Shown here piece after piece: positions 5,474 through 64,000 of a stretch of DNA of 64,000 nucleotides. The notes under the pieces were generated by a model. That model searched no databases and was not told the DNA's origin. It was given only the letters and a program-made list of their open reading frames with translations. This DNA is from Candidatus Omnitrophota bacterium (GTDB lineage Bacteria; Omnitrophota; Gorgyraeia; Duberdicusellales; 4484-171), in assembly GCA_021735655.1 (NCBI GenBank), contig JAIPGM010000009.1:1-64000 (forward strand), read 5' to 3'. Position numbers and translations under genes: made by a program. Each line of letters starts with the position of its first letter. Positions within the stretch are counted from its first letter, which is position 1.

Positions 5474-5476
5474 TTG

Positions 5477-8140: not shown

Positions 8141-8150
8141 GCAGTCTCTC

Positions 8151-9497: not shown

Positions 9498-9513
9498 AAA
9501 GTATACTTCTCCT

Positions 9514-42137: not shown

Positions 42138-42698
42138 TTAATTATGAATCATCAACCAGCGTATGCTATCACCCACCTTGATAAGATTACCGGTCGCCAA
42201 ATCACCATCATCTAAGGTGGAATCTACACGTTTATAAGCGTCATCAGGAATTGGACAAACGACTCCAGAATCCTGATAACAAAAATTCAAAACAATTAAC
42301 CGCATATCGGAATCTGCCCGACTCATAAAGTTCTGAACTAAATAAAGATTATTCCATGGGCTCGGTCCGACATTTTTCTCAAGATAAGGCCCATCCCAAC
42401 CTAACCAATTACTGAAATTAATCATAATATCTGAACGACAAAAAGCCGGATTAGCCCTGGGTTCATCTATGCTTATAAAACAAACCCCGCAAGCACAATA
42501 ATCATCTCCCAGCCAATGGCCAGTGTCAGCATAAAGAGCAAGAACTGCGTTCTTAACTGACTTCATATCAGCTATAGCCCTAGAAACCTTGGCCTTCTCA
42601 ATTGCCTTAAAAGCATTGGGAGCGATAATTGCAGCAAGAATAGCAATTATTGCAATAACCACAATCAACTCAATCAGGGTGAAGCTTTTTCTTGTCAT
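42138..42698 (-). CDS. Prepilin-type N-terminal cleavage/methylation-domain protein (GspG-like pseudopilin or type IV pilin)
   Basis: It has [25 protein letters not shown]. It overlaps the glnS 3' end by 29 nt. Confidence 0.7.
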
Positions 42699-44405: not shown

Positions 44406-46847
44406 CTATCTCTTAGGTGCTGACTTATTGTCCAACTTCTCAGCGACTCTTACCGCTTCAACACCATCTTTTGCGTATTTAGCACCTATTGAATCAGCAT
44501 AAGCTTTATTGACTACCGCCCCGCCAATCATAAATTTACATTTTAAACCTTCCCTCTCGGCGGACTTAACCACCTCATCCATATTAATCATAGTTGTAGT
44601 CATAAGCGCTGAGAGCCCCACAATATCCGGAGAATATATCTTTATATTCTGAATGATCTTTTTAGTCGAAATATCCTTTCCTAAGTCGATAATCTTAAAC
44701 CCGTGATTCTTAAGCATCAAAGCTACTATATTCTTACCGATGTCATGGACATCCCCCTTAACCGTAGCTAGAATAATTACTCCCTTTTTAGCCCAAGCTA
44801 ACTTCTGGTTCTTTAAGTAAGGCTCTAAACGGGAGACTCCTTTTTTCATCGCCTCAGCGCTGGCAATTAGCTGCGGCAGAAAGTATTCTTTTCGATCAAA
44901 AAGGTTACCAACCTTTATTATTGCCGGGGTCATTACCTGCTCTATAAGTTTTGACGGTGTCTCCCCCGACTCTAGAGCCTTTTGAATAAACTCTTCAATT
45001 TGGCTTCTATCCCCTTCAATAATCGCAATCGATACATAATCACAAGGAGAAAGCTTCTTTTTGCTTATTCTTTTACTGAAGGTTGATTCTTTTTGCTTAG
45101 CATAAGCAGCGATAAATTTTTCGCTAGCCTTAGGTTTATTAAATAATAAGTCTTCGGCTAATTTATTCCGTAAACCTGGTGAATCCTCAGGATCGGCAAT
45201 TGCTAAAGTTAGCCCTTTGATTCCGGCCAATTTTAAAAAAACTTTATTAATTAAATGTCTCTGAGGAAGCCCAAATGAAATATTCGAAAGCCCAACTATT
45301 GTTTTAGCTTTAAAGCTCCTCGTGCACCAGCTGATAGTCTTGAAAACCTCTCCAGCAGCCTGAGCATTCCAAGAAAGCGGCATCACTAGCCCATCAATTA
45401 AAATATCCTCTTTAGAAAATCCTATTTTTTTTGCCGCCTTAAAAACGGCCTCGATTATCGGCTTACGTTCCTTAAAAGTTTTAGGGAGCTTTTTTCCGGC
45501 CAAAGGCAAGATTATAAACATTGCTCCGTATTTTTTAGCTATATTAAGTAGCTTTTTAAGCTTTCGACTTTCTCCGGAAATAGAATTAATCAAAGCTCGT
45601 CCAGGATAGAATCTTAAGGCTTGCTCGATAACTTCAGGATTTGCTGAGTCAATTACCAAAGGCAATGAAGTTGCAAGTGGCAATAACGATATAACTTCAA
45701 GCATCGCCTTTTTCTCATCAACTCTTGGAGCGCCCAAATTTACATCCAAAAGCTTTGCTCCCTGAGCCTCTTGAGCTTTAGCAAAAGTGCGGATTTGGGT
45801 ATATTTATTTTGAAGCAACTCGGCTTGCATAGTCTTTTTACCGGTTGGATTTATTTTTTCACCAACAACAATCGGAAATTTTTCTTTCTCGAAAATAAAA
45901 ACTCCCCGAGCAGAACTTAAGGCCGCTATCTTTTTTCGCTTAGGAAAAACTGGCTTACTCCTTAAGGCAACTTTTTTTAGCTTAAAGATATGTTCCGGCG
46001 TTGTTCCGCAACAACCGCCGATTATAGTTGCTCCGGCAGTAATTAACTTTTTAGCCGAATCAGCAAAATCTCCGGGCTTCATATTAAAAACAGCCTTGTT
46101 ATTAATAAGCTTCGGCATGCCGGCATTTGGTTTAGCTACCAAAGGCACAGTGCTATATGGCCTCATCTTTGAAATTATCTTAACCATAGCTTGAGGGCCA
46201 CTTGAACAATTGCAACCTATAGCATCAGCCCCTAAACTCTGTAAAGTAATTAAGGCACTAACCGGATCATTACCATTTAAAGTCCGCCCCCCTGACTCGT
46301 AGGTCATGGTTACTATAGTGAATTTATTAGTAAGCTCTTTTACTGCAATCAAGGCGGCTCGGGCCTCTTGAATATCAATCATCGTCTCAATAGCAAAAAG
46401 ATCAACCCCACCCAAAAGCAACCCCTTAACCTGCTCTTTATAAATATCTACGGCTTGATTAAAATCCAAAGAGCCAAAGGGCTTAATAAACTCACCGGTC
46501 GTAGCTATATCACCAGCAACTAAGGCTTTTTTGCCCACAGCCTGGCGGGCTAATAAGGCTAGACGTCGATTGACCGACACCACATCTTTAATCTTGAAAT
46601 GGGAAAGTTTCAGGCGATTGGCACCAAAAGTACAAGCATAAACTATATCCGAACCAGCCTTAAGATAGTCCGAATGGACACTTTTTGTAAGCTCAGGATT
46701 CTTAAGGCACCAACTTTCCGGACAAACTCCTTGAGGCATGCCGCGCTTATGCAACTCGGTTCCGGTTGCTCCATCAAGCAAAACAACACGCTTTTTTAGA
46801 AGTAGTTTGATTCTAGAATTACTCATAGCCTTTGGATGACTCCACAA
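44406..46847 (-). CDS. metH: Cobalamin-dependent methionine synthase lacking the activation domain (Hcy-binding, pterin-binding and B12-binding modules)
   Basis: It has a homocysteine S-methyltransferase N-terminus, a pterin-binding domain, and the B12 motif [11 protein letters not shown]. Confidence 0.9.
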
Positions 46848-47446
46848 ATAGCGGTAACTGATTTCTCAGGAATAAGTACATATCTATCGGTTATTGAAAC
46901 TTGGATTTTTTCTAATTGCAAAAGCCGATGAATTGTCTCTTGGTTTGTAAGTGCAAAATCACCATAACCGCAGGATATCCGTTTAGGAATCAACTGTTTA
47001 TTCTCACGTTTAAGTTGCGGTCCAAAATAATCTTGAATCCAGACAAATGAAGCATCAACAGTTTCCGAAGCAACCGCATCAAAAACAACTCCCCGAGTTA
47101 AATCGTTGTCTTTAACATTTGTAATCGCCTTGACTATTTCGGCCCCGGCGGTCGCCCCAATCAAAAGAAGCTCCTGGCAGTCTTCAAAAACCGACCCAAC
47201 AAGGTTGCCTTCAAAAATTACCCCTTCGGAAAGCTCTAATTTTGAAACATGCTTCATCTCAATGGCAATTCGCCGAGCGGCTCCTTTTAGCTGTATAAGC
47301 TGAACTGCCTCTTCAATATAGGCCTTAAGCTCTTTTTCCTGCTCAGAAGATATCTTAGTCACCCCCGGTTGATATCCTAAGCGGGCATATATTTTCTCAA
47401 TTGGTATTTTGACTCCGATTTGATTAAAAAATCTTACCTTATTCAT
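46823..47446 (-). CDS. Stand-alone methionine synthase activation (AdoMet-binding) domain protein
   Basis: It has RISCGYGDFALTNQ...[13 protein letters not shown], resembling the MetH activation-domain pattern PGYGDW...P.KSVSG. Confidence 0.65.
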   Translation of the reverse strand: MNKVRFFNQIGVKIPIEKIYARLGYQPGVTKISSEQEKELKAYIEEAVQLIQLKGAARRIAIEMKHVSKLELSEGVIFEGNLVGSVFEDCQELLLIGATAGAEIVKAITNVKDNDLTRGVVFDAVASETVDASFVWIQDYFGPQLKRENKQLIPKRISCGYGDFALTNQETIHRLLQLEKIQVSITDRYVLIPEKSVTAICGVIQRL

Positions 47447-48630: not shown

Positions 48631-50247
48631 TTACTGAGGCTTTGGATGCTTTCCAAGCATAAGGTTTGTTTGAACACTTAAAGTAGCTGCAGCTGTTAAA
48701 AAAATTCCCACCGGAACTAAAAAAATTAAGGCGAAAAATTGAGAAATTTGGTTAAAGAAACCCAGCTTAGATTTCTTTCTCGGAAAAACTAAACTAGTCA
48801 AAACGATTGAAATAATAAAGCATGCTGTCATCAAAGCAAAAATTACAAAAGTTATTCTCGGAGCACTGTAATATATTCCGGAATCTGAAAATTCACGACC
48901 TGACAGTAAGGCCGGAAGCCAGCCAATGATAAATATAATAAAAGGCCAAACAGCCGGCAAGATTTGGGCCTCAAGCAACTTAAAGGCACAAATAATTTTT
49001 TTTAGAAACGGCATCCGGCCAATCCTTAAAAGGGCTCGCATCACAATCGGTAGATTCTCTCCGGCATAAGCTAAATTACATTTTTTCTTATAAAGTTCAG
49101 AAACTGAATCCGAAGAATCTCCAGCGATATCCATGGTAATTGGATAAGTAACATACAACGGATTAATGGTGAACGCACCATTAAAATTAATAAAAGCTTT
49201 CCAAAAAAATGATAAATCAGCTGAGATTAAATCGCTTGGCCAAAACTTAAGCTCAAGCAAAGTTGCCAAACTAACACTAAAACTAGAAAAAATAATCAAA
49301 TTGTCAGGATGAACCGCTTCAATTATTTGAAAAAATGAAGCGGCCGCGTTAAGAACCCTTCCTGGGGCCGAAGCTCGCCAAAGAGAAACGTCGTAAGCAG
49401 CAATCGCTTGAAAACAAGCCAGTTGACGACTAGGCAAAACCATAAAACGATAAGTAAGGCAACTGTAGTGGTCCGGATTAACTAAAGCTCCGGGCTCTAG
49501 AGATGAAGTAATCACATTTTCGTGGGCAATTTTCTTTTCTTTGAAGTAGTTAGCTGCCTGGCTAGCAGCCTGGCTAAGGATGGCCCCCTTAAAAGATTTC
49601 CCGGTTTGAGATTCAGCTGAGCAAGCTACGGTTAAAAAATCAAAAAACTTATCGCGATAACGCTCGATGAGACGCCGATTACTCAACTTTGCATTCTCGC
49701 TAACTCCCGGCTCAAAAGCCAAAACCACTACCATCCTTATTGAAGGAAAGTTACCGCCAATTAAGCTAGTAACTGTTTTTGAAATCAAATTCTCTTGATT
49801 ATCACTAACCGGAATTATAATTAAATGATGTATATCATCTAATTGCGGCGCCTTCTGTTTACTTTTCTCTAAAAGACGCATTTCTTTTCTATGAATTAAA
49901 AATGATATGTCTTGCTTAGTTTTAGATGCCGCCTCTAAGTCATTTAACTCTTTCCAATAAGTATAGATACGATTTAAGCCTCTTGCCCGCTCCGGCCAAT
50001 TAGCCTGTGACTCAAGTTCCAAGCGAGAACATCTAAGAACAAAAGATATCGCCATATAAAGAAGACGCAGAAACCAGTAAAAACTAAAAGCGATAGTAAT
50101 AACTGCGGCGATAAGTGGCCTCACAAAGCAAACTACAGTCAGCGCCAAAAGAATAGTCCAACTTATAGCTGCTGGCAAGATTTCAAAAAATCTTTGCAAT
50201 ATTTTATCTAATTTACTTAAATTCTTATATGAAAATTCAAACTCCAT
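48631..50247 (-). CDS. Polytopic membrane protein, possibly a degenerate GT2-like glycosyltransferase
   Basis: It has 2 N-terminal and about 4 C-terminal TM helices. The central region has IIIPVSDNQEN, resembling the GT2 IIPAYNEE block, but no clear DxD or QxxRW. Confidence 0.4.
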   Translation of the reverse strand: MEFEFSYKNLSKLDKILQRFFEILPAAISWTILLALTVVCFVRPLIAAVITIAFSFYWFLRLLYMAISFVLRCSRLELESQANWPERARGLNRIYTYWKELNDLEAASKTKQDISFLIHRKEMRLLEKSKQKAPQLDDIHHLIIIPVSDNQENLISKTVTSLIGGNFPSIRMVVVLAFEPGVSENAKLSNRRLIERYRDKFFDFLTVACSAESQTGKSFKGAILSQAASQAANYFKEKKIAHENVITSSLEPGALVNPDHYSCLTYRFMVLPSRQLACFQAIAAYDVSLWRASAPGRVLNAAASFFQIIEAVHPDNLIIFSSFSVSLATLLELKFWPSDLISADLSFFWKAFINFNGAFTINPLYVTYPITMDIAGDSSDSVSELYKKKCNLAYAGENLPIVMRALLRIGRMPFLKKIICAFKLLEAQILPAVWPFIIFIIGWLPALLSGREFSDSGIYYSAPRITFVIFALMTACFIISIVLTSLVFPRKKSKLGFFNQISQFFALIFLVPVGIFLTAAATLSVQTNLMLGKHPKPQ

Positions 50248-50253
50248 ATCTAT

Positions 50254-51699
50254 TTACCTCTTCTTGCTTAAGTATTCTCGATAAGAAAATGGCCTTTCTC
50301 GATTCAGGTCAATAACTTCAGCGCAACTTAACTTTTTAGTAAGCGCATCCAAATAATATAACTTTCCATTATCCTCCAAATAGTGAACTGAAGAATTAGT
50401 TTTTATTTTAATAATTTGATTAGGAGCAGCCTCCCCCTCAGCTTTAAGCTCAAAAATAAAAACTTCGTCAGCATCAGCTAAAACAATATAAGTTCCCTGA
50501 TAGGCCCAAAAACTCTGAGTAATATCACGACCCTTAGTATAAAACCAGTACCCTTTCGTCGGTGTGGTCTTAACATAGGTAGGATCTACCGCCAATAAAG
50601 GCCGATAATCCATAATTCCAGCCTGCTTCTTCATCCAAAACAATACCCGTTTAGTCTTTCGATGAAACTCAAGCCCCCTAACTCCACTTTCGGTAATACG
50701 ATGCGGCAAATGGTTGCTTAAAAGCTTTCCCTCTTCACCAAGAAAGATAATTAAATCCTCATCTAAAGGTTTAACCTCAAAGAATCCTTTATCTCCAAAA
50801 AGAAATTTACCCAAAATCGGATCATTTATCAAAACCTTTTGATTTCTTCGAGCATAATTAATACGAAAAAGAGTATTAATCTCTTTTAAAACATATATTT
50901 TGTTGTTAAAAAGACCATAGCCACGTAAATTGTCTATATAATCAGCCTCTAACGATTGTTCAATTAAATCTATTTTACTAAGGCTATTGTTCTCAAAAGG
51001 AAAAAAATACCTAGACTGTCCTGGCTCCCAAATAATATGCTCAGGGCTTCCGGTAAAAAAACGACTAATATCTTTAACATTAACATAATCAATATCTTGT
51101 TCGATTAAAAGATACTTTTCTCCATTGAAATTTCTAACCCTAGCAATCACCGTAGAACTTTCCTTAATCTTAAATAGGGAAACTACCTCGTAATTCGCCA
51201 AGGTTGAATCAGAACGCACAAATGATGTTAGAGCTTCTGACTTTGAATCAAAGCTGTAATAATCTCTAAGCTTAGGACCTTTAGCTAAAATAAAAAATCT
51301 ACTTCCGGATAATGGGATCAGCTTTTGAAAAGAATCAGAAGATAGTTCGCGGGTTACCCATCTCTGTGGAATCAATAAAATTTTATCGAAAACAGATGCT
51401 AATTTAGGGAGAGCGGTAATTTTATAATGCCAAGGCTTATAATTTTTTAAGGAAAGTGTGACATCGTATGATCCCGGCAACATGCCAGATAGGGCCGCTG
51501 GAGTTTTCTCGGTAAAACGCCTCCCTTCAACATGAATTGTAGCGCCCGGCGGACTGCTAGAGAGGAAAATAAGACCAGCCAAATCACCCTCGCCCCCTGG
51601 CCTCATAATTCGGCCAAAACTATATAAAAGAAGTAAAGGACAAAGAATAAGATAAGCTGCTATGAAACTAAAAAGGAGTGTTTTTCTTAAATAAAGCAT
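50254..51699 (-). CDS. PEGA-domain protein with an N-terminal membrane anchor
   Basis: It has the PEGA-like segment IHVEGRRFTEKTPAALSGMLPGSYDVTLSLKNYKPW. Confidence 0.6.
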   Translation of the reverse strand: MLYLRKTLLFSFIAAYLILCPLLLLYSFGRIMRPGGEGDLAGLIFLSSSPPGATIHVEGRRFTEKTPAALSGMLPGSYDVTLSLKNYKPWHYKITALPKLASVFDKILLIPQRWVTRELSSDSFQKLIPLSGSRFFILAKGPKLRDYYSFDSKSEALTSFVRSDSTLANYEVVSLFKIKESSTVIARVRNFNGEKYLLIEQDIDYVNVKDISRFFTGSPEHIIWEPGQSRYFFPFENNSLSKIDLIEQSLEADYIDNLRGYGLFNNKIYVLKEINTLFRINYARRNQKVLINDPILGKFLFGDKGFFEVKPLDEDLIIFLGEEGKLLSNHLPHRITESGVRGLEFHRKTKRVLFWMKKQAGIMDYRPLLAVDPTYVKTTPTKGYWFYTKGRDITQSFWAYQGTYIVLADADEVFIFELKAEGEAAPNQIIKIKTNSSVHYLEDNGKLYYLDALTKKLSCAEVIDLNRERPFSYREYLSKKR

Positions 51700-52185: not shown

Positions 52186-52761
52186 CTAAGGAATCCTATT
52201 TTTTGCCTTCTTCAATAAAGTATATTCAACATAGCCGCATAAAACTTCCTGCACCTTAGCCGGGGGCGGGACAGCAAAGTAATGAGAAATGACTGCATGA
52301 GCCATCTCATGACCAAGCATGCCAAGAGTTAAGTCTTGATAGGAAATATAGATTGTATTTTTGGAATGAAGATAGAAAGAACGCTCCGGAAAACTAGAAC
52401 CAAAATAACTGCTAAACACTGAGCTCAAAGATGACTGATCCGGAAGAATGCTTATCTTGCCGTGAAAGCTATAAACATGGATATCGAGGATATCGGAAAC
52501 TTCCAAATACAAATCATCCATCGCCTGTGCTATGAGAGAGTAAGAATCATTTTTCTGCTTGCCAAAAAAACTGTCAACATTTCCTAAATAGCTAAAATTT
52601 ATTTTACTTAACAAAGAAACAACATCTAGCTTGCGAGACCCATAAACCGAAAAGTATTTTCCGGTAGCAAGAAGCGAAAGGCTACCCTCTTGAGCTAAAA
52701 CCTTAGGAGTAAATAAAACCCCTAACATGACAATAGACAGTATTAAGCTCTTTTTCATCAA
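52186..52761 (-). CDS. Secreted protein with an HExxH motif (putative small zinc metallopeptidase-like)
   Basis: It has a signal peptide and GHEMAHAV. Confidence 0.5.
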   Translation of the reverse strand: MMKKSLILSIVMLGVLFTPKVLAQEGSLSLLATGKYFSVYGSRKLDVVSLLSKINFSYLGNVDSFFGKQKNDSYSLIAQAMDDLYLEVSDILDIHVYSFHGKISILPDQSSLSSVFSSYFGSSFPERSFYLHSKNTIYISYQDLTLGMLGHEMAHAVISHYFAVPPPAKVQEVLCGYVEYTLLKKAKNRIP

Positions 52762-53327
52762 GTTTTAAAATTATCAAGTTCAACCTGCAAATGATCAAGA
52801 AGAGTTAAAAGTTGATCAGCATCTTTTGCTGCTATATGAAAATTCCTGTCTCTTATAAATTTGCTCAAGGAGTTAAAGCTAGCTTTTAGCCCTAAGTGCT
52901 TATCTTTCAATGACCTACACATAGCATCTAAAGATTTAGCAAACGCCTGCAACTGATCATTGCCGCGAATATGAAAATCTCTTCTAAAATCTGCACGCTG
53001 GAGTAAATCAACCTCACGGCGCAGGCGAAAAAGAGGTCCAGCAATTTGATGAGACACAAGCATTGTTAAAGCAAGAACCCCTAAGCCACTAAAAAATACT
53101 ACTACCGTTAAATTAATAGCAACTATCGGCAAAATAAAATCCGAGGTTCTTTTAACGGTTACTTTTGTGTTTTCAATGGCTACTGTGTTTGAATCACTAG
53201 AAAAAAATAATATTCCTCCTAGAATAAGCAACGATGATAAAACAATAATTGAACCGAATTTCATCATAAATCTTGTCTGAAAATTTTTATCAATAAAGTA
53301 ATTCCTACGTTTAAATTTTTCTGCCAT
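52758..53327 (-). CDS. Two-TM membrane protein with a HAMP-like linker and no output domain
   Basis: It has TM1, a periplasmic loop, TM2, then HQIAGPLFRLRREVDLL (a HAMP signature) and a coiled coil. Confidence 0.5.
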   Translation of the reverse strand: MAEKFKRRNYFIDKNFQTRFMMKFGSIIVLSSLLILGGILFFSSDSNTVAIENTKVTVKRTSDFILPIVAINLTVVVFFSGLGVLALTMLVSHQIAGPLFRLRREVDLLQRADFRRDFHIRGNDQLQAFAKSLDAMCRSLKDKHLGLKASFNSLSKFIRDRNFHIAAKDADQLLTLLDHLQVELDNFKT

Positions 53328-53340: not shown

Positions 53341-53916
53341 TTATTGGTTAGCTTTAAGGTCTAAACCTTCATAATCAATATTAATCTTCACTTTTGTCTT
53401 TAAGGACTCTGCCCACTGGTTTATCGCCTCACGTTGTTTTTCATTCAAAATGACCCATTTTATCTGATCATATACTTGAGCTAGCTCTTTCTCCGGAAAT
53501 TGACTATCTTTATTTTTTTTGTAATATCTACGAATATCCTGGTCATTAACCTGAATACCAACAGCCAGTTCTTTTATCTTTTTTGATAAAGCAAGTTTAA
53601 GTAATGACTGCTCCCAGAAAAGCTGAACGTCTTTTAGAAATTCCGGATCCTTATCCAAACCCAACCTCTCGGCTTCATTAAGAATTAGTTTGCGGGATAT
53701 AAACTGATCTAGGAAATCTCGCTGCGATTCAACATCAGAGCTACGAGATAAGGAAGAGTTTAGAGCTTGTTTAAACTCCTGCTTACTTACTTCAATATTA
53801 CCAATCGTAATTACCGGGTGCTCTTTATCTGCTAAGCCGCAACCAACAACTAATAAAATCATTATAATAACAGGAATTGCTCTGAACATAGAACCTCCTT
53901 TTTTTCCGCTAATCAA
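53341..53916 (-). CDS. SurA-N-terminal-domain-like chaperone lipoprotein
   Basis: It has lipobox VVGC and a helical SurA_N-like pattern. Confidence 0.5.
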   Translation of the reverse strand: MISGKKGGSMFRAIPVIIMILLVVGCGLADKEHPVITIGNIEVSKQEFKQALNSSLSRSSDVESQRDFLDQFISRKLILNEAERLGLDKDPEFLKDVQLFWEQSLLKLALSKKIKELAVGIQVNDQDIRRYYKKNKDSQFPEKELAQVYDQIKWVILNEKQREAINQWAESLKTKVKINIDYEGLDLKANQ

Positions 53917-53952
53917 TCTTTCTTTTATTATACTATTTTATCGGAAGAACTC

Positions 53953-53988
53953 AAAATAAAAAACAGGAAGGTGGATGCCACCTTCCTG
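53953..53988 (-). terminator. Strong Rho-independent terminator after the giant gene
   Basis: An 11-bp perfect stem CAGGAAGGTGG/CCACCTTCCTG with a 3-nt loop is followed on the minus strand by TTTTTTATTTT. Confidence 0.75.
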
Positions 53989-54018
53989 TTAATTAAACTC
54001 TCTATTGTCAAAATCTAC

Positions 54019-57000
54019 TTACAAATCAGTTGCTTTTTTCTTCTTTTTCTCATCATCGTCTTTGCCGCCAAAATAAGGAGCTAGAGTCCCTTTGAGGTTA
54101 ATATTCTGCTCAATGAACTCATAAGCACCACTATCTAGGCTAATACCATCAAAGCCTGACTCATCGGTTACAGTTAACGGATGATAAGCATAAAAATCGG
54201 TGCTTCTAACTGGGGTAACTGTACTAAATCTATAGTTAGCCATCAATTCATAGTAAGTCCTAGAATCACGCAAGATACTTGCTAAAAATTGAGCACCGTC
54301 AAATTCTGGTAAGAAATCTGGCCAAATCTGCTGAGGTCCTAAGTTAGCTGCCGCAGGGCCAAACAAAGGTGAAGCACCTCTGGTGTCGGTATCATCATAA
54401 AAGATGTATCCCGGAGGTGTAACATTGGTTAAGTCAATATCTGGCGATGGAAAAACCCCGGTAACTGCTGTAACCCCAGGTCTAACTATACCTTCAATGG
54501 CTCCGCTTACCCCTAAGGTACCACTAGGACCAGCTAAGGTAAAACCAGGAGCAGCGCCACCTATCTCTAGGGTAAGCCCAGCAACTGGCGTAAAACCAGC
54601 AGGAACTGCCCATTTTGAAGGATCTAAATCCACTGCCTGAATATTTACATTTAAAGGATTATAAAAATTATCTGCATCTACTGGAACTCCTGCGTTACCA
54701 ATTCCAATTGTGCCTTCTGGTGTTGAGAAATAAGAATAACTTCCAGCAATTACGTTTGGCCCAGAAACCGGGTCAACTACGTAATGTGAAAATACATCTA
54801 TTCCACCATCGGTCGACCAAGGAGTACCAGTTAAGTCCATCGGAAGCGCTCTTGCGAAATCATTTACCGTGTCAGGACCAGTTGTTACGTCTGGTTGTAC
54901 TCCGCTAGGATCCCAGCCGGTTCCGGCATAAATCGAGCCAGTGCGGCTTTCTAAATAAACTCCACCGCGCGGTGCGATAACTGAGTTAACTGTCATGTCC
55001 CCACCACTACTAACATTAATTATCCCATTATTAGCAGCAACTGAAAGACCATAAAGAGTGCCTGCGTCCTCAGTCAAGGTACCTAGGGTAATGCTGTCTA
55101 ATTCATTAACGTAGATGTTTCCTACATCCCAAGAGTAAGCACTTAAATAATCAACTGCTGTCATAAATGGCGAAGCACTGGTACCGATATTGTGACGGGC
55201 CAATAACCCGGCAAAATCAGCGCTAACCAGCGAAGTAGCATCACCATAGATATTACCTTCCCAAGCATAGATATCTACTTCTGAGCTGCCTGTACCGCCA
55301 ACTGAAGCTGAAATAGAGCTATTAGCAAGGGTTACATCGCCGTTACCAGAGATTAAAGTTGCTCTGGCATCGCCGTCACCTATCATCTCAGCTGAAACAG
55401 TACTATCAGTAATATTTACACCCAAATTAGCAAATAATTCAACTAAAGCTGTATCACTACCACTTAAAGCTTGAGCTAAAATAGTGCTGCCATTAGTTAC
55501 GTTAATTTCACCATCTTGGGCGGTTACGCCTATTTCGGCATGACCTTCTCCATCTACGTCAGCAGTAATATCACTATTGCTAATATTAACATCGTTAAGG
55601 GTATTAATATCAACAAGGGCTATTCCTTCATTGCCTACTAAAGCTTCCAAGGTTGAATCGGTAATTGTTGTACTATTCCCAGCAACGCTAAGAATAGTTG
55701 CATCACCATCATTGCCAACTGAAGCTATTACTGTACTTTCTATTACCTCTATGTTGCCTTTGTCGGCAGCCAAGTTAACCGTAGCATCGCCATCATTTAC
55801 TACTGATGCAGCAAGTGTACTCGGATCAATGGTTATATCATTTGCGGCAAGAACGTTAATCGTAGCATCGCCATCATTACCAACCAAAGCTTCCAAGGTT
55901 GAATCAGTAATTGTAGTATTGTCGCCAGCTTCTAAGTTAACTGTTGCGTCACCGTCATTACCAACCAAAGCATATCCATAATCAGTGTAGGCTTCAACAT
56001 GACCAGTATCGACCTCGATATCATCTTCAGCTTCGATATTGACAGTGGCTTTGATGTCGCTGTCTTGGATTTCGACTCTTTCATCAGCTTCTAGATTGAT
56101 CTCAGATTTAACCGTACTAGAAGAGATCTTGACATCATCAGCTGATACTATATCGACCTGAGCTTCAATTGTCTCATCAGTTACTTCGATGTTTTCTCCA
56201 GCTTCAATGTCAATTGTTGATTTTACAGTGCTGTCTTGAATTATTAGGTCATTCCACCAGTTGCCTTCTTCAGGATCCCAACCACCGACTACTAGGTCGA
56301 TCTCGGATTTAACGGTGTCAACGTCATCGCCGTTGGTGATCTCAACGTCATCTTCAGCATCGATGTCAACTGTGGCTAATACATTACTGTTAACAATCTC
56401 CATCCTCTCATCAGCCTTAAGCTCGACTTCAGACTCGATATGGCTGTCGATTGACTTTACGTCATCTGAGGACTTAAGAGTTACTTCAGATTCGATGGTC
56501 TCACCAGTTACCTCTATAGTATCCTCAGCAGTTACATCGACTAAGGCCTTAACGGTTGATTCTTCAATTACCAGGTCGCTCCAGTTGCTGTCATTGTCAC
56601 CACTCCAGCCGCCGGCTACCAGATCTATTTCAGCTTTGATAGTTTCACCTTCAGCGTTAGTGATTTCAACGTCATCTTGAGCCTCAATCTCAATAGTAGC
56701 TAAGATATCGCTGCTTTCAATTTGCAGACGGTCTTGAGCTACTAGTTCAAGTTCGGCTTCTATAGTGCTATCAGTTATCTTTACATCGTCTGAAGACTTA
56801 AGAGTTACTTCAGATTCGATGGTCTCATCAGTTACTTCAATCTTGTCATCGGCAGTTACATCTACCAATGATTTAACTGTTGAATCTTCAATTACCAGGT
56901 CGCTCCAGTTGCTGTCATTATCACCACTCCAGCCGCCGGCTACCAGGTCTATTTCAGCTTTAACAGTAGTCTCACCTTCAGTGATCTCAACGTCATCTTC

Positions 57001-60000
57001 GGCGTCAATAGCTACAGTTGCTAGAATATCACTGTCAGTTATTTCTAAACGATCATCAGCTACTAGCTCGGTTTCAGCTTCGATAGTGCTTTCAGAGATC
57101 TTCACATCGTCGCCGGAAGCTATATTAACTGTTGATTCAACAGTCTCACCGGTTACTTCGATCTTGTCATCGGCAGTGATATCGACCAGTGATTTAACCA
57201 AACTGCTGTTGATTATTACATCATTCCACCAGTTACTTGCATTGTTTACCACGATATCAATCAATGAGCCGATAGTTTTACCGCCGTCATTGGTGATCTC
57301 AACGTCATCTTCAGCTTCGATATTGACAGTGGCTTTGATGTCGCTGTCTTGGATTTCGACTCTTTCATCAGCGCTAATCCTAACTTCGGCCTTAACATCA
57401 CTAGAAGCAATCTTTACGTCCTCATCGGCACTCAAGTTTACTTCTGCAGTTAAGTCTTCACCGTCTAAGTCGATATTAGAATCTTCCAATTCGACTTTAG
57501 CCAATACTGTACTGCGTGTTACCTCTATATTGTTGTCAGCTTGGGCATTAACCGTTGCTTGGCCTTTTCCTTCTAAAATCGCCTCGACTGTACTGTCCTC
57601 TATTTTAATGTCATGATCAGCTTGTAAGTTAACTCTTGATTCACCATCAAGATAGTTAATCGCTCTAACCAAACTGTCATTCTTTACTATTAAATCATTA
57701 CCAGCAGTAATATTTACACTGGCTACGCCGGTGTCAGAAGGTGGATCGATTGCTCTAACAGTGCTGTTATCCACAGTCACATTGCCTAAATCGGAATGGA
57801 TACCAATATAGGCGCCACCATCAGATGAAGGGGCAAGTTTAGAAAAAGCGCTTACTAAGCTATCCTTGATCACTATATCATTATCGGCAAGTAAGTTAAT
57901 CCAGGCTGATGCACCAAGGGCCCTGGCGATAACATCACTTCTTAATAAACCGATTCTATTAGCATCGAATCTAATTCTTGATAGTCCACCAAGATTTAAC
58001 TCATTAGTAACTACCCTTGAGTCAATCACCCTAATATCATCATTAGCATCGAAGAAAATCCTGGCTAAGTAATTACCGAACGAATTAGCTCTAACTACGC
58101 TACCGTCTCTTAGACCGATGTTTTTACCAGCATGAAACTCAACATTTGCCGGACCATTATTAATTGAGGTAGCTGCAACTCGTGAGTTTGTTAAACCGAT
58201 ATTATCCCCAGCATCTATTGTAATAATTGCTGAGGCTACTCCATCAAGCACCTGGCTCAACAAATCGCTGTTGTTCAGAAATACATCACTAGCAGCATCA
58301 ATATCTATCTCAGCATGGCCGGTGTTTGACACTATTGCTTTCACTTCACTGTCATCGATTGTAATATCGCCATTCTCGGTCGAAATATCTACATAAGCAT
58401 TACCGTTCAAAACTGATGCTGTAATGTAGCTTGTGTCTATGGCAATGTTATCACCGGCAGATAGATCAACTGAAGCATCGCCGTCACCCTCAACGGTTGC
58501 ACTTACAGTGCTGTCAGTGATGGTTAAATCTCCATTCTCAAGTGTACCCGATGTAGGAGGAACAGGTTCGTAAGGAGTGGTCCAATCACCAGCTACCATT
58601 TTAACCGTAGCATTACCGTTTCCGGTTACATTAGAAGAAACTGTACTATTAGCAACACTAATGTTCTCACCTTCAGCAAAAACCTCTGCATTACCAGTAC
58701 CGGTTTGAGCTGAAACTGTACTTGAATCGTTTATATTAAGATCAGCGCCATGGAAAGTGCTGTTATACAAATCTGGATCAGGAAAATTTATCATAATCCC
58801 ATCTGCATGCAATCCGGCGCTAAGTTCAACATTGGCATCGCCGGTTCCTTGAGTGATTGCGCTAACTGTGCTGTCAACAACATCGATCCCCTGCCAAGCA
58901 CGGACAGTTGTTGTAGTATCACCATTGCCAGCTGTGAAAGCTCTGACTATGCTGTTGTTTTGTATTGCGGTATTGCCAGAAGTTCCAAAAAAGACTGTTG
59001 AATCTCCGTCATTACCAACAGTGGCTTCGATTGTACTGTTATCAACTGTTTGAGAGGCAATCGGCCCATGAGTAAGCAGTGAAACTTCAGCATCACCGTC
59101 ATTGCCAATAGCCGCTGAAACAGTACTATCTAAAACTTGTAACGGCCCAGCCGATCTTAAAACAACACTAGCGGTGCCATTTAAAGCTGAGGCCGAAATC
59201 AAACTCGGGTCTATAGTCAGAGTTCCGTCGGCAATCATATTTCCAGCAGTTAAATCAACTGAAGCATTGCCAGTGCCTACGACAGTAGAAGTAATATCAC
59301 TATCGGTTACAGTAACATTTGTACCAGCATCTACATCAATCGAAGCATCGCCATCAAGGCCAATTCTAGCTAAGATATCGCTATCGACTATCGAAACTAG
59401 ACCATTAGTTGCATTTGCAATAACTGTTGCATCTCCACCGCCGCGGACTCTTGAACGAATTAGGCTATTGTCCCTAATGGAGATTCCTCTTCCCGGTGTT
59501 GTTAAGCTAACTGAAGCATTTCCATTGCCATTAACCCAAGCATCAATGACGCTTGAGTCGTACACACTGATTCCATTGTCAGCATCAGCAGTAATCAAAG
59601 CATTTCCATCGCCCGCACGAAAAGCCTCAATAGTTCCATCTACAAAAAGAGTTCCACTGTTAACGTCTAAATTAATAACTGCATCATCAGCTGGACCAGA
59701 TCCAGTTGCCAAAACTGAATAAGCATAAGTATCTCCACCGGTAATAATATCGACTACACTCCCTAGAGCCTGGATATCCCAAAGATTTACACCGTCTAAC
59801 TCGTTAATCCATACATCGCCACCTAAAGCAATCGCTTGCCAGATATCATCTACGTTAGTGTCAATATGATCACCTGGGACACCAATAGTACCAGCTGCAT
59901 TCATGTAAAGATTTGGAGCTGTTAAATTAATGCGATTACCATTAGTATCGAGAATATCGCCTGCAGAACTAGTTAAACGAATATTATCGCCAGCATTAAT

Positions 60001-63000
60001 AACACCTAAAGAAATATTACCAACTGCATTAATATTAGCATCATGACCAGCCGTAACAGTGCTATTCGATACCACAACCTGACCATCAGCGTCAATATTT
60101 ACATCATAACCTGCGGTCATATCACTTGAACCATTCATGATAGTATCTCGACCGGTGACAACGTTAATACTTCCGTCAGAAAGTAACGCCGAGCTTTGGC
60201 TCATGATTAAATCCTGAGCTGCATAGATATCAACCAATCTGCCTGAGCGGATAGTTGAATTATTGTTCATAAGAACATCTCTCTGGGCATCTACGTCAAC
60301 CCAAGCTGTACCTAAAATATCTGCATTGTTAAACATCCTTAAGTCTGCATCAAGGTTTACATCAACAATTCTGGCTTCAATTGATGAGTTGTTATGCATA
60401 CCTAAACCAAAAGCGTCAATGCGTGCATTAGTGGCATTAATTGCTGAAGTATTATACATTCTCATAAGATTAGCCACATCAATCGTTACATTTGTACCTG
60501 AGATAGATGATCTATTATTCATTGTAAAATTATCTGGCCCTGCTCCATCACCTACGTTTACAAATATATCAGTTCCGGTAATCGAAGATGTGTTATTCAT
60601 CTCCATATAATCATCGGCTGAAACATTCACCGTAGCACCATGGATAAGAGCATCGCCGTTCATAGTTAAAGTATCATTGCCAGATCCATTGCCAGCTGAA
60701 ACATTAACTATACCGCGTGTGCCAATAGTGCCTGTATTGTGGACTAGATCGTTATCGGCATGTACATTAACTGTACCTGAGCCAAGGCTGATAACATCAG
60801 CGTTAACTGTCATATCAGCTCCGGGGCCAGAACCATTAGCTGCTAAACTAACATCACTATTTCCAACAACATCAGCATTAACTGTCATTGGCGAACCAGT
60901 AGTAATATCAATATTTCCACTACCAAAGTTCTTTACGGCATATCCCCATCCTGGCAAATCATTGAGGGCTATAGCACCCTTATTGCGAATAGTGATATCA
61001 CCGCTTGAATCAGGATCGCGTACCTGTGCGCTTAAACTGCCAATTCGAGTTTTCAAATCAATTGAAGTCTTTGCATCAAGTATCGCTGTATCAGAAATGA
61101 TGTTTGGCCCAAACCCACTATTACCTATAATAGAGCCGGTAAAGTTAAATGGATAAACATCGTAGCCCATTGTCAAAAGAATAACATCAGTTGCAATTAA
61201 TTGGTTAATCGCTAAGTCAGTTAGCTCATTTAAATTAATAAGCCCGCCAACGCGACCCTCTAAAGTTTCTATCTCGGTCTCGATTCCATTACCTAAACCA
61301 GCGAGACCAACATTACCGTCAACATCAAAGGCAAGTGTGTCAGCTACAATATCAGTGCCGATGTCGCCTGAGCCCTGCTCCTGCACATCACCTGAACTGA
61401 TTAGCTTAAATTTCAGCCCCGGCTGATCTAAATTATTAATTGTGATAGTTCCGGCGCTACTTGAACCGATATTGATAAAACCAGAAGTAATCAAATTGTA
61501 GATTTCATCATTAGAAAGCCTAAACTGACCATAAGCTAAATGTGCGGCTAGAGCAATTGTCTGAGCAGCGCTTGGGGCAATAGTAATATCTGCCGTGCCG
61601 GCATCTACGATACCGTCAACATTAATGTCATCAGCGCTTATGTAGACTTCTCCGTCAGTTGCTCCAGTTGTATCTATAACCGAACCATTTTGCAAATCAT
61701 AGAAACCAGTAGTATCACCATCGCTATCAGCTGAACCGGTAAAGCTTCCACCACCGGTGTAAACATCTCCACCAGAACTATGGATAATATCACCTACGGC
61801 AGCCAAAATTACATCTCCGCCGCCACTATTGATCAAAGCATTAACATAAAGGTTAGGATCATCAACTACGGCTATATCAATAAGTCCGTTGTTAGTAGTA
61901 ATCGCACCATCAAGCCATAAATCACCAGAGTTAATCAAACTGAAGCTATCTCCGTCAAATCCACCAAAATGCATTGCACCAGCATGATACATGGCGGCTC
62001 TTTGAGCAGTAATAGACATATTGTTTGATCTTAATTCAAGAGCACCATTTGTACCAAAACCGATATCACCACCGGCATTAAAATCTATGGTATTGGCTGA
62101 TATATCAAAGTTAGTAATACCACCTGCAACCTTATCAATTCCATCAACAGCATTGCCACTATCATAAGCATCATTGATATTTCCACCGGCCGTAACTGTT
62201 ACTGTTCCTAATGCAGGAATAGCTGAACCAGTAAAAGTACCATCAGTTGAAACCCTAGTAACATAAGCATCTTGGGCAGCAGTTAAGTCAATATCTCCGC
62301 CGTCAGTAACTACGCTGCCTGTTTGACTAATAGCCAAATCTCTTCCAGCATCAAGACCAACATTGCCAGCGCTTGAATCAACAGCAGCATTTACTGACAA
62401 ATCTCCATCAGCACCAGCTGCAGCTAAACTAATATCGCCCAAGGCTAAAACATCAGAATTTACTGTTAAAGGAGAAGCTGTAGAAATATCAACTGCTCCA
62501 CCGATATTATTAACACCACTACCGGCGATAGTTAGATCTCCAGTATTATCAATTTCTATATTTCCTGAAATCGTATTAAGAGCTTCTAAATTACTTACCT
62601 GTGTTTCTAAAGCATCGCCGGAACCGATTCCTTGAGCTGCAGAAATGCTTAAAGAATCAGCGGTGATATCAGGAGTAGTGGCACTATTAGCATCTACTAC
62701 TGCCCCATCACTTGAATTTATATTAACATTTACACCACTCAATCCAGTTGTAACTGTTGTTGAAGTGGCGCCTAAAGGATCGCTTCCTACCTCATAAGAT
62801 GCTTTTAACCACGCATCACTTCTGGCAACATTTGAAACCCTGACTTCATCAATCTGGCCTTCAGTTAAATAATTTGTATCACCCCAACCGCCAATCATAA
62901 AGTCGGTAGCAGTATCGACATCGCCTGATGAAGTTGCAAAACCAATATTGTCACCTGCGCCATCTACATACAAACTTCCTGAACCACCGCTACGAGCAAG

Positions 63001-64000
63001 CACAACATTATGCCAAGACCCATCAGCTATATTAACAGAACCATCGTCTGCATCGTTATTGATCCAGCTTCGAGCTTGACCATTATGATTTTCCAGGGTA
63101 TAGCCAGAACCTGCTCCAGGAGTAGCACCAGCCAAACCAATATAATCCTCTGACTGATTTCCCTTATACCAGGTTTCAATGGTAAAATCGCCTGTTCCTA
63201 AACCAAGACCATTCCCAATATCAATAAAGCTACTTCCATCAAAATCAGCTGCATTACCCATTTCTCCATCAACGAGGGTTGTACCGTTATTTGTTCCATC
63301 GTTACCGTTAGCTGTTGAATCATTGTAGTCATTCATATGATGAACCATTAGATAACCATTGCTCCAAACATCGGTTGAATCGTTTTCCGGTGCGCCATAA
63401 CTAGCGAAAGCAAAATTCTCGGAAGGTAAGTTTGTGTTATCGTCATGATACATTGAAAAAGTGGTAGTAAGGCTATCACTTACGCTATCTAATTTAACCC
63501 AAATAAAAGCTTCCTGAGTTCCACTGTTCCAACTTTCAATTTCGTAAGAAAGCACTTTTCCGTCAGGCCCGACAAAACGCACGTCAGAACCATCGACTTG
63601 AGCTTGAGAAAAATCAAAATTACTGCTATCTAATTTTATTAAAACTGGGAAATCGGTAAGGGTGGAGTCAATGAGGCTTGGGTCAATAGTAAAATTCTCT
63701 TTATAACGCCAAGCCGGAGCAATCATCACATCATTGGTCGCCTCGATATTAATATCCTTAGCCGAAGATATTGCCCGAACAGTTACGTCGTAACCGCTAA
63801 TATTAACGTCACCTGAAGTAATACTGGTTGTAATAATAAAACCGAAATCTTGGAAAAAGTCACCAGTACCATTACCATCATTATCGGCCCTAAAAGTTAA
63901 ACTTCCATCATTTCCAGTAATGTCGCCTTTAACGACTATGTGTTCATTATCAAGCCAGGTTTGATTACCGGTATAAGTACCGCCATATATATAGGTATGG
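54019..64000 (-). CDS. Giant extracellular or surface protein (at least 3,327 aa in the window; 5' end beyond the window) with DUF2341, a LamG-like domain and beta-solenoid or adhesin-like repeats
   Basis: The reading frame stays open from 63729 to the window edge at 64000 (verified codon by codon), so the protein's N-terminus lies outside the window. The DUF2341-like segment is APAWRYKENFTIDPS...VLIKLD...DGSDVRFV...YEIESW. A ConA/LamG-like block follows. Long Asp/Thr/Asn/Gly-rich periodic repeats follow that. The C-terminal tail ends in KKKKK. Confidence 0.85.
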   Translation of the reverse strand, partial: HTYIYGGTYTGNQTWLDNEHIVVKGDITGNDGSLTFRADNDGNGTGDFFQDFGFIITTSITSGDVNISGYDVTVRAISSAKDINIEATNDVMIAPAWRYKENFTIDPSLIDSTLTDFPVLIKLDSSNFDFSQAQVDGSDVRFVGPDGKVLSYEIESWNSGTQEAFIWVKLDSVSDSLTTTFSMYHDDNTNLPSENFAFASYGAPENDSTDVWSNGYLMVHHMNDYNDSTANGNDGTNNGTTLVDGEMGNAADFDGSSFIDIGNGLGLGTGDFTIETWYKGNQSEDYIGLAGATPGAGSGYTLENHNGQARSWINNDADDGSVNIADGSWHNVVLARSGGSGSLYVDGAGDNIGFATSSGDVDTATDFMIGGWGDTNYLTEGQIDEVRVSNVARSDAWLKASYEVGSDPLGATSTTVTTGLSGVNVNINSSDGAVVDANSATTPDITADSLSISAAQGIGSGDALETQVSNLEALNTISGNIEIDNTGDLTIAGSGVNNIGGAVDISTASPLTVNSDVLALGDISLAAAGADGDLSVNAAVDSSAGNVGLDAGRDLAISQTGSVVTDGGDIDLTAAQDAYVTRVSTDGTFTGSAIPALGTVTVTAGGNINDAYDSGNAVDGIDKVAGGITNFDISANTIDFNAGGDIGFGTNGALELRSNNMSITAQRAAMYHAGAMHFGGFDGDSFSLINSGDLWLDGAITTNNGLIDIAVVDDPNLYVNALINSGGGDVILAAVGDIIHSSGGDVYTGGGSFTGSADSDGDTTGFYDLQNGSVIDTTGATDGEVYISADDINVDGIVDAGTADITIAPSAAQTIALAAHLAYGQFRLSNDEIYNLITSGFINIGSSSAGTITINNLDQPGLKFKLISSGDVQEQGSGDIGTDIVADTLAFDVDGNVGLAGLGNGIETEIETLEGRVGGLINLNELTDLAINQLIATDVILLTMGYDVYPFNFTGSIIGNSGFGPNIISDTAILDAKTSIDLKTRIGSLSAQVRDPDSSGDITIRNKGAIALNDLPGWGYAVKNFGSGNIDITTGSPMTVNADVVGNSDVSLAANGSGPGADMTVNADVISLGSGTVNVHADNDLVHNTGTIGTRGIVNVSAGNGSGNDTLTMNGDALIHGATVNVSADDYMEMNNTSSITGTDIFVNVGDGAGPDNFTMNNRSSISGTNVTIDVANLMRMYNTSAINATNARIDAFGLGMHNNSSIEARIVDVNLDADLRMFNNADILGTAWVDVDAQRDVLMNNNSTIRSGRLVDIYAAQDLIMSQSSALLSDGSINVVTGRDTIMNGSSDMTAGYDVNIDADGQVVVSNSTVTAGHDANINAVGNISLGVINAGDNIRLTSSAGDILDTNGNRINLTAPNLYMNAAGTIGVPGDHIDTNVDDIWQAIALGGDVWINELDGVNLWDIQALGSVVDIITGGDTYAYSVLATGSGPADDAVINLDVNSGTLFVDGTIEAFRAGDGNALITADADNGISVYDSSVIDAWVNGNGNASVSLTTPGRGISIRDNSLIRSRVRGGGDATVIANATNGLVSIVDSDILARIGLDGDASIDVDAGTNVTVTDSDITSTVVGTGNASVDLTAGNMIADGTLTIDPSLISASALNGTASVVLRSAGPLQVLDSTVSAAIGNDGDAEVSLLTHGPIASQTVDNSTIEATVGNDGDSTVFFGTSGNTAIQNNSIVRAFTAGNGDTTTTVRAWQGIDVVDSTVSAITQGTGDANVELSAGLHADGIMINFPDPDLYNSTFHGADLNINDSSTVSAQTGTGNAEVFAEGENISVANSTVSSNVTGNGNATVKMVAGDWTTPYEPVPPTSGTLENGDLTITDSTVSATVEGDGDASVDLSAGDNIAIDTSYITASVLNGNAYVDISTENGDITIDDSEVKAIVSNTGHAEIDIDAASDVFLNNSDLLSQVLDGVASAIITIDAGDNIGLTNSRVAATSINNGPANVEFHAGKNIGLRDGSVVRANSFGNYLARIFFDANDDIRVIDSRVVTNELNLGGLSRIRFDANRIGLLRSDVIARALGASAWINLLADNDIVIKDSLVSAFSKLAPSSDGGAYIGIHSDLGNVTVDNSTVRAIDPPSDTGVASVNITAGNDLIVKNDSLVRAINYLDGESRVNLQADHDIKIEDSTVEAILEGKGQATVNAQADNNIEVTRSTVLAKVELEDSNIDLDGEDLTAEVNLSADEDVKIASSDVKAEVRISADERVEIQDSDIKATVNIEAEDDVEITNDGGKTIGSLIDIVVNNASNWWNDVIINSSLVKSLVDITADDKIEVTGETVESTVNIASGDDVKISESTIEAETELVADDRLEITDSDILATVAIDAEDDVEITEGETTVKAEIDLVAGGWSGDNDSNWSDLVIEDSTVKSLVDVTADDKIEVTDETIESEVTLKSSDDVKITDSTIEAELELVAQDRLQIESSDILATIEIEAQDDVEITNAEGETIKAEIDLVAGGWSGDNDSNWSDLVIEESTVKALVDVTAEDTIEVTGETIESEVTLKSSDDVKSIDSHIESEVELKADERMEIVNSNVLATVDIDAEDDVEITNGDDVDTVKSEIDLVVGGWDPEEGNWWNDLIIQDSTVKSTIDIEAGENIEVTDETIEAQVDIVSADDVKISSSTVKSEINLEADERVEIQDSDIKATVNIEAEDDIEVDTGHVEAYTDYGYALVGNDGDATVNLEAGDNTTITDSTLEALVGNDGDATINVLAANDITIDPSTLAASVVNDGDATVNLAADKGNIEVIESTVIASVGNDGDATILSVAGNSTTITDSTLEALVGNEGIALVDINTLNDVNISNSDITADVDGEGHAEIGVTAQDGEINVTNGSTILAQALSGSDTALVELFANLGVNITDSTVSAEMIGDGDARATLISGNGDVTLANSSISASVGGTGSSEVDIYAWEGNIYGDATSLVSADFAGLLARHNIGTSASPFMTAVDYLSAYSWDVGNIYVNELDSITLGTLTEDAGTLYGLSVAANNGIINVSSGGDMTVNSVIAPRGGVYLESRTGSIYAGTGWDPSGVQPDVTTGPDTVNDFARALPMDLTGTPWSTDGGIDVFSHYVVDPVSGPNVIAGSYSYFSTPEGTIGIGNAGVPVDADNFYNPLNVNIQAVDLDPSKWAVPAGFTPVAGLTLEIGGAAPGFTLAGPSGTLGVSGAIEGIVRPGVTAVTGVFPSPDIDLTNVTPPGYIFYDDTDTRGASPLFGPAAANLGPQQIWPDFLPEFDGAQFLASILRDSRTYYELMANYRFSTVTPVRSTDFYAYHPLTVTDESGFDGISLDSGAYEFIEQNINLKGTLAPYFGGKDDDEKKKKKATDL
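55930..57290 (-). repeat. Tandem repeats of about 330 nt (about 110 aa), 4-5 copies, inside the giant gene
   Basis: The protein unit ...NWWND/AGGWSGDNDSNWSDLVIE(D/E)STVK.LVDVTA.D.IEVT.ETIESEV... recurs. Stretches of about 68 nt are identical at 56030-56100 and 57300-57370. Confidence 0.7.

Follow-up and report, generated by a model that had tools for sequence, protein, structure and literature searches.

The DNA considered here, called the window throughout, comprises positions 1 to 64,000 (64,000 nucleotides) of contig JAIPGM010000009.1 from a Candidatus Omnitrophota bacterium (assembly GCA_021735655.1). Its end is occupied by a very long coding sequence on the minus strand (54019-64000), designated tpsA, which is followed by an intrinsic terminator and three small genes in the same orientation. 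In translation, the open reading frame (ORF) at 54019-63999 runs for 3,326 codons (9,981 nt) without a stop up to the window edge, and its stop codon lies at 54019-54021. The translated frame shows 100% identity over all 3,326 residues to residues 332-3657 of the NCBI protein MCF7908632.1 (3,657 amino acids), which is entitled [quoted passage not shown] (MAG, metagenome-assembled genome) and encoded on a contig of 68,975 nt, and which was also the top match of the profile search with the C-terminal domain described below. The window thus holds the C-terminal 3,326 of 3,657 codons. An earlier sequence-only reading had held that the frame is open to the edge and that the true N-terminus and its signal lie outside, and exactly 331 residues prove to be missing according to MCF7908632.1. 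These are encoded by the first 331 codons (993 nt) of the gene and comprise a signal peptide and a two-partner secretion (TPS) domain. An internal GTG at 63729, the sole start given in the ORF list, was listed because the frame is open at the window edge and is not the real start.

The full-length protein starts with MRKSKFFKAVSLLILVSFIFSPQYGFSQ, in which a basic n-region and a hydrophobic core form a Sec-type signal by inspection. When the first 403 residues were scanned, the TPS domain (PF05860) was matched at residues 76-300 with 68.5 bits against a cut-off of 33.5 (E = 1.1e-18), and the equivalent of the NPNG motif was found as NTNG at residue 121, with no NPNL. Because the signal peptide and the TPS domain lie in the missing 331 residues, the ORF is very probably the passenger of a TpsA exoprotein, namely residues 332-3657 of a 3,657-residue protein of two-partner (type Vb) secretion in Omnitrophota. 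The suggestion that the protein is secreted or surface-exposed, together with the proposed search for a signal or secretion motif at the real N-terminus, is thereby borne out by the Sec-type signal and the TPS domain found there. The identity as a TpsA passenger had escaped that reading.

The window ORF contains no Cys and 11% Asp, and the mature full-length protein has a mass of approximately 375 kDa and a pI of approximately 4.05; the net charge of its 300-residue blocks within the window ranges from -20 to -70. The lysine-rich tail reported from the sequence is present in the translation, which ends in ...GGKDDDEKKKKKATDL with the stretch KKKKKATDL (tail at 54022-54069, minus strand). The 108-residue repeat units described below are 45-72% identical as protein and 55-74% identical as DNA, the longest exact repeat in the DNA of the gene spans 68 nt, and besides a trivial two-copy 21-mer no array was detected in it by Tandem Repeats Finder. 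The repeats are therefore old and diverged, an assembly artefact of the repeats is unlikely, and the ORF is real; the earlier proviso that the repeats might stem from assembly was not upheld. Long antisense ORFs on the plus strand inside 54019-64000, such as 56765-57616, are by-products of the repeat composition. A similar effect is seen in related records whose TpsA gene is broken by a 100-N gap, in which gene callers annotated antisense ORFs in place of the real tpsA (4142-9828 in locus L010 and 7357-9651 in locus L006).

Architecture and family of the exoprotein

In the numbering of the window ORF (residue 1 corresponding to residue 332 of the full-length protein), residues 1-112 (63664-63999, minus strand, as are all features of the protein) may form beta-helix-like coils that link the TPS domain to DUF2341, as judged from the sequence pattern and the continuity with MCF7908632.1. 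This linker is followed by DUF2341 (PF10102; residues 136-192, 63424-63594; 41.0 bits, gathering cut-off 23.4) and by a Laminin_G_3 or concanavalin-A-like lectin domain (PF13385; residues 254-397, 62809-63240; 50.5 bits, cut-off 27.6). The internal DUF2341 and LamG/ConA-like domains recognized in the sequence-only reading are thus both above the Pfam gathering score. Pfam scans of the 3,326- and 3,657-residue sequences reported the DUF2341 and Laminin_G families only, an NCBIfam scan of the window protein returned nothing, and PDB sequence searches with the whole protein and with the C-terminal domain profile gave no match. Many unrelated proteins of bacteria and archaea contain the DUF2341-LamG pair with approximately 30% identity, and a protein search with the N-terminal 450 residues retrieved generic DUF2341-LamG proteins only, with no orthologue among them. 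Furthermore, scans of genome and metagenome contigs with the same 450 residues gave only two weak DUF2341 loci (L007 and L008).

Most of the protein consists of a repetitive acidic shaft (residues ~430-2880, 55360-62712), which is presumed to be a right-handed parallel beta-helix. Autocorrelation located a 22-residue period at about residues 1000-1300, a 27-28-residue period at about residues 1400-2000 and 2500-2800, and a 19-residue period at about residues 2000-2600. Four super-repeats of 108 residues (residues 2256-2687, 55939-57234) begin at residues 2256, 2364, 2472, and 2580, with a spacing of exactly 108 residues; each comprises approximately five 19-residue coils and a Trp-containing insert (GGWSGDNDSNW), and the block is the most acidic stretch of the protein. 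Of the periods proposed earlier, that of 22 residues stands and that of about 110 is exactly 108, while the supposed 17-residue period is really 19 and the 27-28-residue period had been overlooked. In an AlphaFold2 (AF2) model of the last 480 residues, built from a 22-sequence alignment (mean predicted local distance difference test score, pLDDT, 82; predicted template-modelling score 0.78), the last ~80 residues of the shaft form beta-helix coils with pLDDT > 90. Repeat periods of 19-28 residues, the absence of Cys, and a pI of about 4 fit type V passengers.

The shaft is followed by a conserved C-terminal domain that defines the family by alignment and profile (residues ~2881-3326, 54022-55359), with the motifs LARxNIGT, SVAANNGIIHI, GPNVIAGxYSYFSxPxGTIGVG, VRPG, QIWP, and FYAYHPLTxxDxSAFD. 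Sequence searches of the C-terminal ~400 residues found no match in Pfam, NCBIfam, or PDB. Residues 1-380 of the modeled 480 are predicted confidently as nearly all beta, whereas confidence is low for the final ~100 residues, where the most conserved motif (FYAYHPLTxxDxSAFD...AYxFI) and the charged tail are located. Gly, Pro, Tyr, and Ser account for most invariant positions of the domain, and its role is thus more likely to be structural than catalytic. The extreme C-terminal module of ~100 residues (YYE...YHPLT...AYEFI) with the charged tail (54022-54312), modeled by AF2 with low confidence, is separable, since many profile matches span only positions ~585-699, that is, this last module. It also stands alone at the C-terminus of other TPS-domain proteins.

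A word-indexed search with the last 480 residues retrieved 22 proteins, all of those with a source name coming from Omnitrophota MAGs and most being fragments cut at contig ends. Two complete short relatives (P0018, 738 residues, and P0021, 783 residues) carry an N-terminal Pfam TPS domain and are encoded directly after a POTRA_2/ShlB gene. A profile built from the C-terminal alignment matched 522 of 1.84 billion representative proteins at E <= 1e-3, of which 97 reached E <= 1e-30. Among the best 136 of the 522, 27 are complete and combine an N-terminal TPS domain with the C-terminal domain; they range from 408 to 3,657 residues (median approximately 1,300), and the window protein is the longest complete member. 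A TPS domain stands at the start of every complete member. The DUF2341-LamG pair was found in none of the other 135 of these representatives and in none of 30 related loci. The C-terminal domain is 31-55% identical across more than 20 genomes, and its profile, when run against a single genome for each species, yielded 22 loci, of which 16 are in MAGs labelled Omnitrophota and 6 in MAGs labelled "uncultured Planctomycetia/Planctomycetales". These matches show that Omnitrophota hold a large TpsA subfamily (at least 522 representatives) with its own C-terminal domain of ~400 residues, which is absent from Pfam, NCBIfam, and PDB.

Conserved gene neighbourhood

Synteny was established by tblastn across all related loci. 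A gene for TpsB (POTRA_2 and ShlB Omp85 domains) lies directly upstream of the TPS start in ten distinct loci (L001, L004, L006, L010, L016, L023, L025, L029, L031, and L032). In two of them with longer relatives of the window protein, L010 and L006, the TpsB gene is followed by a gene whose product has a TPS domain at its start (E = 4.8e-34 and 1.7e-32, respectively) and the C-terminal domain at its end; only a 100-N scaffold gap breaks this gene. Downstream of tpsA, homologues of the three small genes of the window, encoding a SurA_N-like lipoprotein, a HAMP-like membrane protein, and a secreted HExxH protein, follow in the same order in 20 loci with 30-65% identity. Judged by this synteny, tpsA and the three small genes are a conserved, previously undescribed cassette, which is typical of the phylum. 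The linkage of the giant protein to these neighbours, suggested earlier from one sequence, is supported by the trio behind its homologues; as for the role as secretion or maturation helpers that had been suggested for them, synteny is all that points to it.

Between tpsA and the trio lies an intrinsic terminator hairpin on the minus strand (53962-53990), whose 13-bp perfect stem (AACAGGAAGGTGG/CCACCTTCCTGTT) encloses a 3-nt loop, CAT, and is followed by a T-run, TTTTTATTTT (-23 kcal/mol, z = -7.2). The 11-bp stem described earlier is contained in it. A sigma-70-like promoter match, TTGAGT-16-TATAAT (53927-53954, minus strand; a consensus match only), is located past the terminator and ahead of the SurA-like gene, and the three genes therefore probably form their own transcription unit.

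The SurA_N-like lipoprotein (53341-53916, minus strand) was assigned on the basis of SurA_N_3, the lipobox LVVGC, and synteny. Its gene most likely starts at the ATG at 53889, which is preceded by AGGAGG 6 nt upstream, and not at the listed TTG at 53916. The window copy reaches 27.0 bits for SurA_N_3 against a cut-off of 27.2, the domain is matched at E <= 0.01 in 21 of 21 members (the window copy and 20 orthologues), and most copies have the lipobox Cys. No peptidyl-prolyl isomerase domain was found in the 21 copies, save for one weak Rotamase_2 match (E 0.0016), and the protein is therefore called SurA_N-like only, not SurA proper. The next gene (52758-53327, minus strand) encodes a protein with two transmembrane (TM) segments, recognized as HAMP-like from these segments, HAMP matches of its orthologues, and synteny. 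Its N-terminal motif is invariant, its short periplasmic loop is conserved to an unusual degree, and a HAMP-like linker is present, with no output domain. Pfam HAMP is matched in 14 of 21 members (the window copy and 20 orthologues; best E 1.8e-7), the window copy being without a match at E <= 0.01, and NCBIfam gave weak matches to the HAMP regions of WalK and MtrB. The third gene (52186-52761, minus strand) encodes a secreted HExxH protein, a putative zinc metallopeptidase, as suggested by its signal peptide, the HEMAH motif at 52297-52311, and synteny. An alignment of 18 sequences (the window copy and 17 orthologues) shows no variation at H151, E152, H155, E172, and E179. Its family matches are all sub-threshold (M48, M4, and SprT-like), and a PDB sequence search with its profile gave no match.

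After the trio, the window encodes a 481-residue PEGA-domain protein (50254-51699) and a 538-residue polytopic membrane protein without a Pfam match (48631-50247), which together occupy 48631-51699 on the minus strand. Both were considered as cassette members and rejected, as neither has a counterpart beside tpsA in any related locus. Several loci show arrangements of their own. In L006/L027 (CAYTIW010000003.1), two tandem genes with TPS and C-terminal domains stand behind a single TpsB gene, and a Toluene_X outer-membrane protein comes next in place of the trio. A 152-residue ORF with a POTRA_2 match follows the trio in L010 (13873-14331), and two consecutive SurA-like/HAMP-like pairs are present in L021 (3331-6274).

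Elsewhere in the window, a 731-residue ORF (26912-29107, minus strand) combines Radical_SAM and LAM_C domains (lysine-2,3-aminomutase-like) with a D-Ala-D-Ala-ligase-type ATP-grasp C-terminus in an unusual fusion. Methionine synthase is apparently split at 44406-47446 (minus strand), with an 813-residue MetH containing the homocysteine, pterin, and B12 domains and a separate, overlapping 207-residue ORF with only a weak activation-domain match. All plausible genes of at least 150 residues across the 64-kb window are on the minus strand, an extreme strand bias, and the GC skew is negative in each 2-kb bin. Scans of the 64-kb window for tRNA and Rfam families found nothing.

Proposed secretion route and its alternatives

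Drawing on the established TPS pathway (PMC5422565) and on the FHA and CdiA systems, a likely route to the cell surface was proposed for the window protein. The Cys-free, very acidic chain of ~375 kDa would be exported by Sec and would stay unfolded in the periplasm, where the SurA_N-like lipoprotein of the cassette is a plausible holder. The POTRA domains of TpsB, which would be encoded upstream of the window, may then recognize the TPS domain, and the chain could thread through the TpsB barrel and fold outside into a right-handed beta-helix. From ~2,450 shaft residues, 19-28 residues per coil, and 4.8 Å per coil, the resulting fibre would comprise ~100 coils and would therefore be roughly 50-60 nm long. 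The inserted lectin-like DUF2341-LamG module most plausibly binds carbohydrate on a partner cell, by which the fibre would adhere to the surface of a host or prey. The C-terminal domain and the Lys-rich tail would exit last and are most likely a retention or maturation module, on which the HExxH metallopeptidase and the HAMP membrane protein could act in analogy with the FhaB prodomain. The domain and the tail may also tether the fibre or time its release, as in the case of the FhaB prodomain and the secretion arrest of CdiA.

A more elaborate scheme can be drawn from the same genes, although we consider it rather doubtful as a whole. In this scheme, tpsB, tpsA, and the genes for the SurA_N-like lipoprotein, the two-TM HAMP protein, and the HExxH peptidase would constitute a self-contained, regulated type Vb deployment system of a hitherto undescribed kind. 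The SurA_N-like chaperone would escort the unfolded 375-kDa chain, whose export would be halted by the extreme C-terminal module and the tail, so that the fibre stays anchored in the periplasm. This tether would then be sensed and cut by the HExxH peptidase together with the HAMP protein, the latter acting by way of its highly conserved periplasmic loop. If so, an Omnitrophota nanobacterium could switch its fibre between cell-bound and released states upon contact with a host or prey.

Several observations weigh against the assignment to two-partner secretion or against the functions attached to it. The TPS domain lies outside the window and is known solely from a database protein of the same assembly, so it is not independent evidence. 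The Pfam scan of the whole 3,657-residue protein reports no TPS domain, which is probably why its public name is only "DUF2341 domain-containing protein", a name that conceals its TPS nature. No match to the Fil_haemagg (FHA-type) repeat families of Pfam was found in either the 3,326- or the 3,657-residue sequence. Neither a TpsB gene nor a second TPS gene is present within the window, which ends inside tpsA, and in L019, the sole other locus that shows the start of the gene, no TpsB gene was found in the 739 nt upstream. With regard to the accessory genes, no protein of the trio has a significant family assignment beyond the domain level, and modeling of the HExxH protein by AF2 from its sequence alone gave an unusable result (pLDDT 38). 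We infer each of the functions named here, from adhesion and chaperoning to retention and proteolytic maturation.

The protein could also be a TpsA with a degradative function, that is, a secreted beta-helical polysaccharide lyase or glycosidase-like enzyme that carries a ConA-like glucanase domain and attacks the cell wall of prey or host. Laminin_G_3 does belong to the ConA-like lectin/glucanase superfamily, and the literature ties giant genes of Omnitrophota to cell-wall degradation (10.1101/2023.11.21.568195); this reading is nevertheless unlikely, as no glycoside-hydrolase or lyase family was matched in Pfam or NCBIfam and the invariants of the C-terminal domain, mostly Gly, Pro, and aromatic residues, contain no catalytic set. 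The TPS architecture, the very large size, the distinct C-terminal region, and the small genes downstream would suit a CdiA-like TpsA of contact-dependent inhibition, with a C-terminal toxin and an immunity protein among the small genes. Such a system is very improbable here, because no VENN or pretoxin motif is present, the C-terminal domain is conserved at the identities given above rather than polymorphic, and the downstream trio is conserved and exported, unlike a variable cytoplasmic immunity gene.

An even slimmer chance is given to a giant adhesin outside type V secretion, whether an RTX-type protein of a type I secretion system, an S-layer-like protein, or an Omnitrophota giant protein assisted by a type II secretion system (T2SS) or type IV pili (T4P). 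Its Asp-rich, repetitive composition resembles that of Ca-binding adhesins, a pseudopilin gene is located ~11 kb away (42138-42698), and published Omnitrophota giants are flanked by T2SS/T4P genes. However, the protein has an N-terminal signal peptide and a TPS domain, it lacks a GGxGxD nonapeptide, LPxTG, or TM segment as well as any autotransporter barrel or dockerin match, and TpsB is adjacent in ten relatives; an RTX adhesin of type I secretion was accordingly rejected. Membership in the class of Omnitrophota giant proteins was rejected as well, since the protein, at 3,657 residues, is far under the published giants of at least 10 thousand residues and has no dockerin or enzyme Pfam domains. 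A classical autotransporter (type Va) was likewise discarded, there being no Pfam autotransporter match and the C-terminal model consisting of a beta-helix and a low-confidence tail. Least probable of all is that the long ORF or its repeats are an assembly artefact or a decaying pseudogene. The sequence does come from a MAG, and homologues elsewhere are often cut at contig ends or interrupted by 100-N scaffold gaps, but the 9,981 nt without a stop and the divergence of the repeats argue against it, as does the occurrence of the TPS and C-terminal-domain architecture in 27 complete proteins from independent assemblies.

The survival of unfolded TpsA chains in the periplasm has been described as little studied (PMC5422565), and a chaperone candidate and a candidate maturation peptidase encoded in the same cassette make this question directly testable. 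Furthermore, the capture of DUF2341-LamG by one member of the family suggests how host-dependent nanobacteria may diversify their attachment fibres.

Comparison with known systems

Two-partner secretion is textbook biology, and the protein class itself is not new. The window protein resembles FHA/FhaB (Bordetella), HMW1 (Haemophilus), and EtpA (enterotoxigenic Escherichia coli) in its very large, Cys-free, repetitive, and presumably beta-helical passenger, and its 19-residue coil period matches that of FHA. As in these systems, a TpsB (POTRA_2/ShlB) gene is located directly upstream, here seen in relatives, and the distinct C-terminal region, which may act as a prodomain, is reminiscent of FhaB. 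The signal peptide and the TPS domain are also shared, with NTNG here in place of NPNG (PMC5422565). In contrast to TpsA proteins of the FHA type, the window protein has no detectable Fil_haemagg repeats, its C-terminal domain of ~400 residues is without a match in Pfam, NCBIfam, or PDB, and DUF2341-LamG is inserted ~100 residues after the TPS domain. Three accessory genes lie downstream here, whereas classical systems have none or a glycosyltransferase (HMW1C/EtpC) and belong to proteobacterial pathogens, not to an Omnitrophota nanobacterium.

With CdiA and BcpA, the protein shares TPS secretion, a very long filament, and a C-terminal part that is probably retained during secretion, and some loci include an accessory periplasmic lipoprotein, such as BcpO of the bcpAIOB locus (PMC5422565). 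It differs from them in having no VENN motif and no polymorphic toxin/immunity pair, its C-terminal domain being conserved across the family. The DUF2341-LamG module has counterparts with the same domain order, for example in Kiritimatiellae, Methanomicrobiales, and the candidate phyla radiation, at ~26-36% identity over ~65-75% of the 450-residue query; elsewhere, it occurs in proteins of 350-790 residues, often in MotA/ExbB-type or other contexts, whereas here it lies inside a TpsA shaft.

No paper joining Omnitrophota with two-partner secretion was found in the literature searched, and TPS, TpsB, haemagglutinin, and DUF2341 are unmentioned in the two studies of Omnitrophota giant proteins (10.1101/2023.11.21.568195 and 10.64898/2026.06.07.730766). 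The giants described there (Archaeovorin, the Dockerin type, and others) are 10,000-147,000 residues long, are multi-enzyme, tandem-Pfam, or dockerin-bearing proteins, and are flanked by T2SS/T4P genes. The sequence-only reading had taken giant adhesin-like proteins as a hallmark of some episymbiotic or uncultivated lineages. The origin from uncultivated Omnitrophota agrees with this, and the phylum has an episymbiotic cultured member (10.64898/2026.06.07.730766); the adhesin role is one that we infer, and the "giant" hallmark was overstated because the published giants have the lengths, other architectures, and T2SS/T4P flanks just given, next to which the window protein, with its 3,657 residues, is more ordinary and of another kind. 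What the window protein has in common with those giants is the phylum, diverged repeats, and a presumed action at the surface of host or prey cells.

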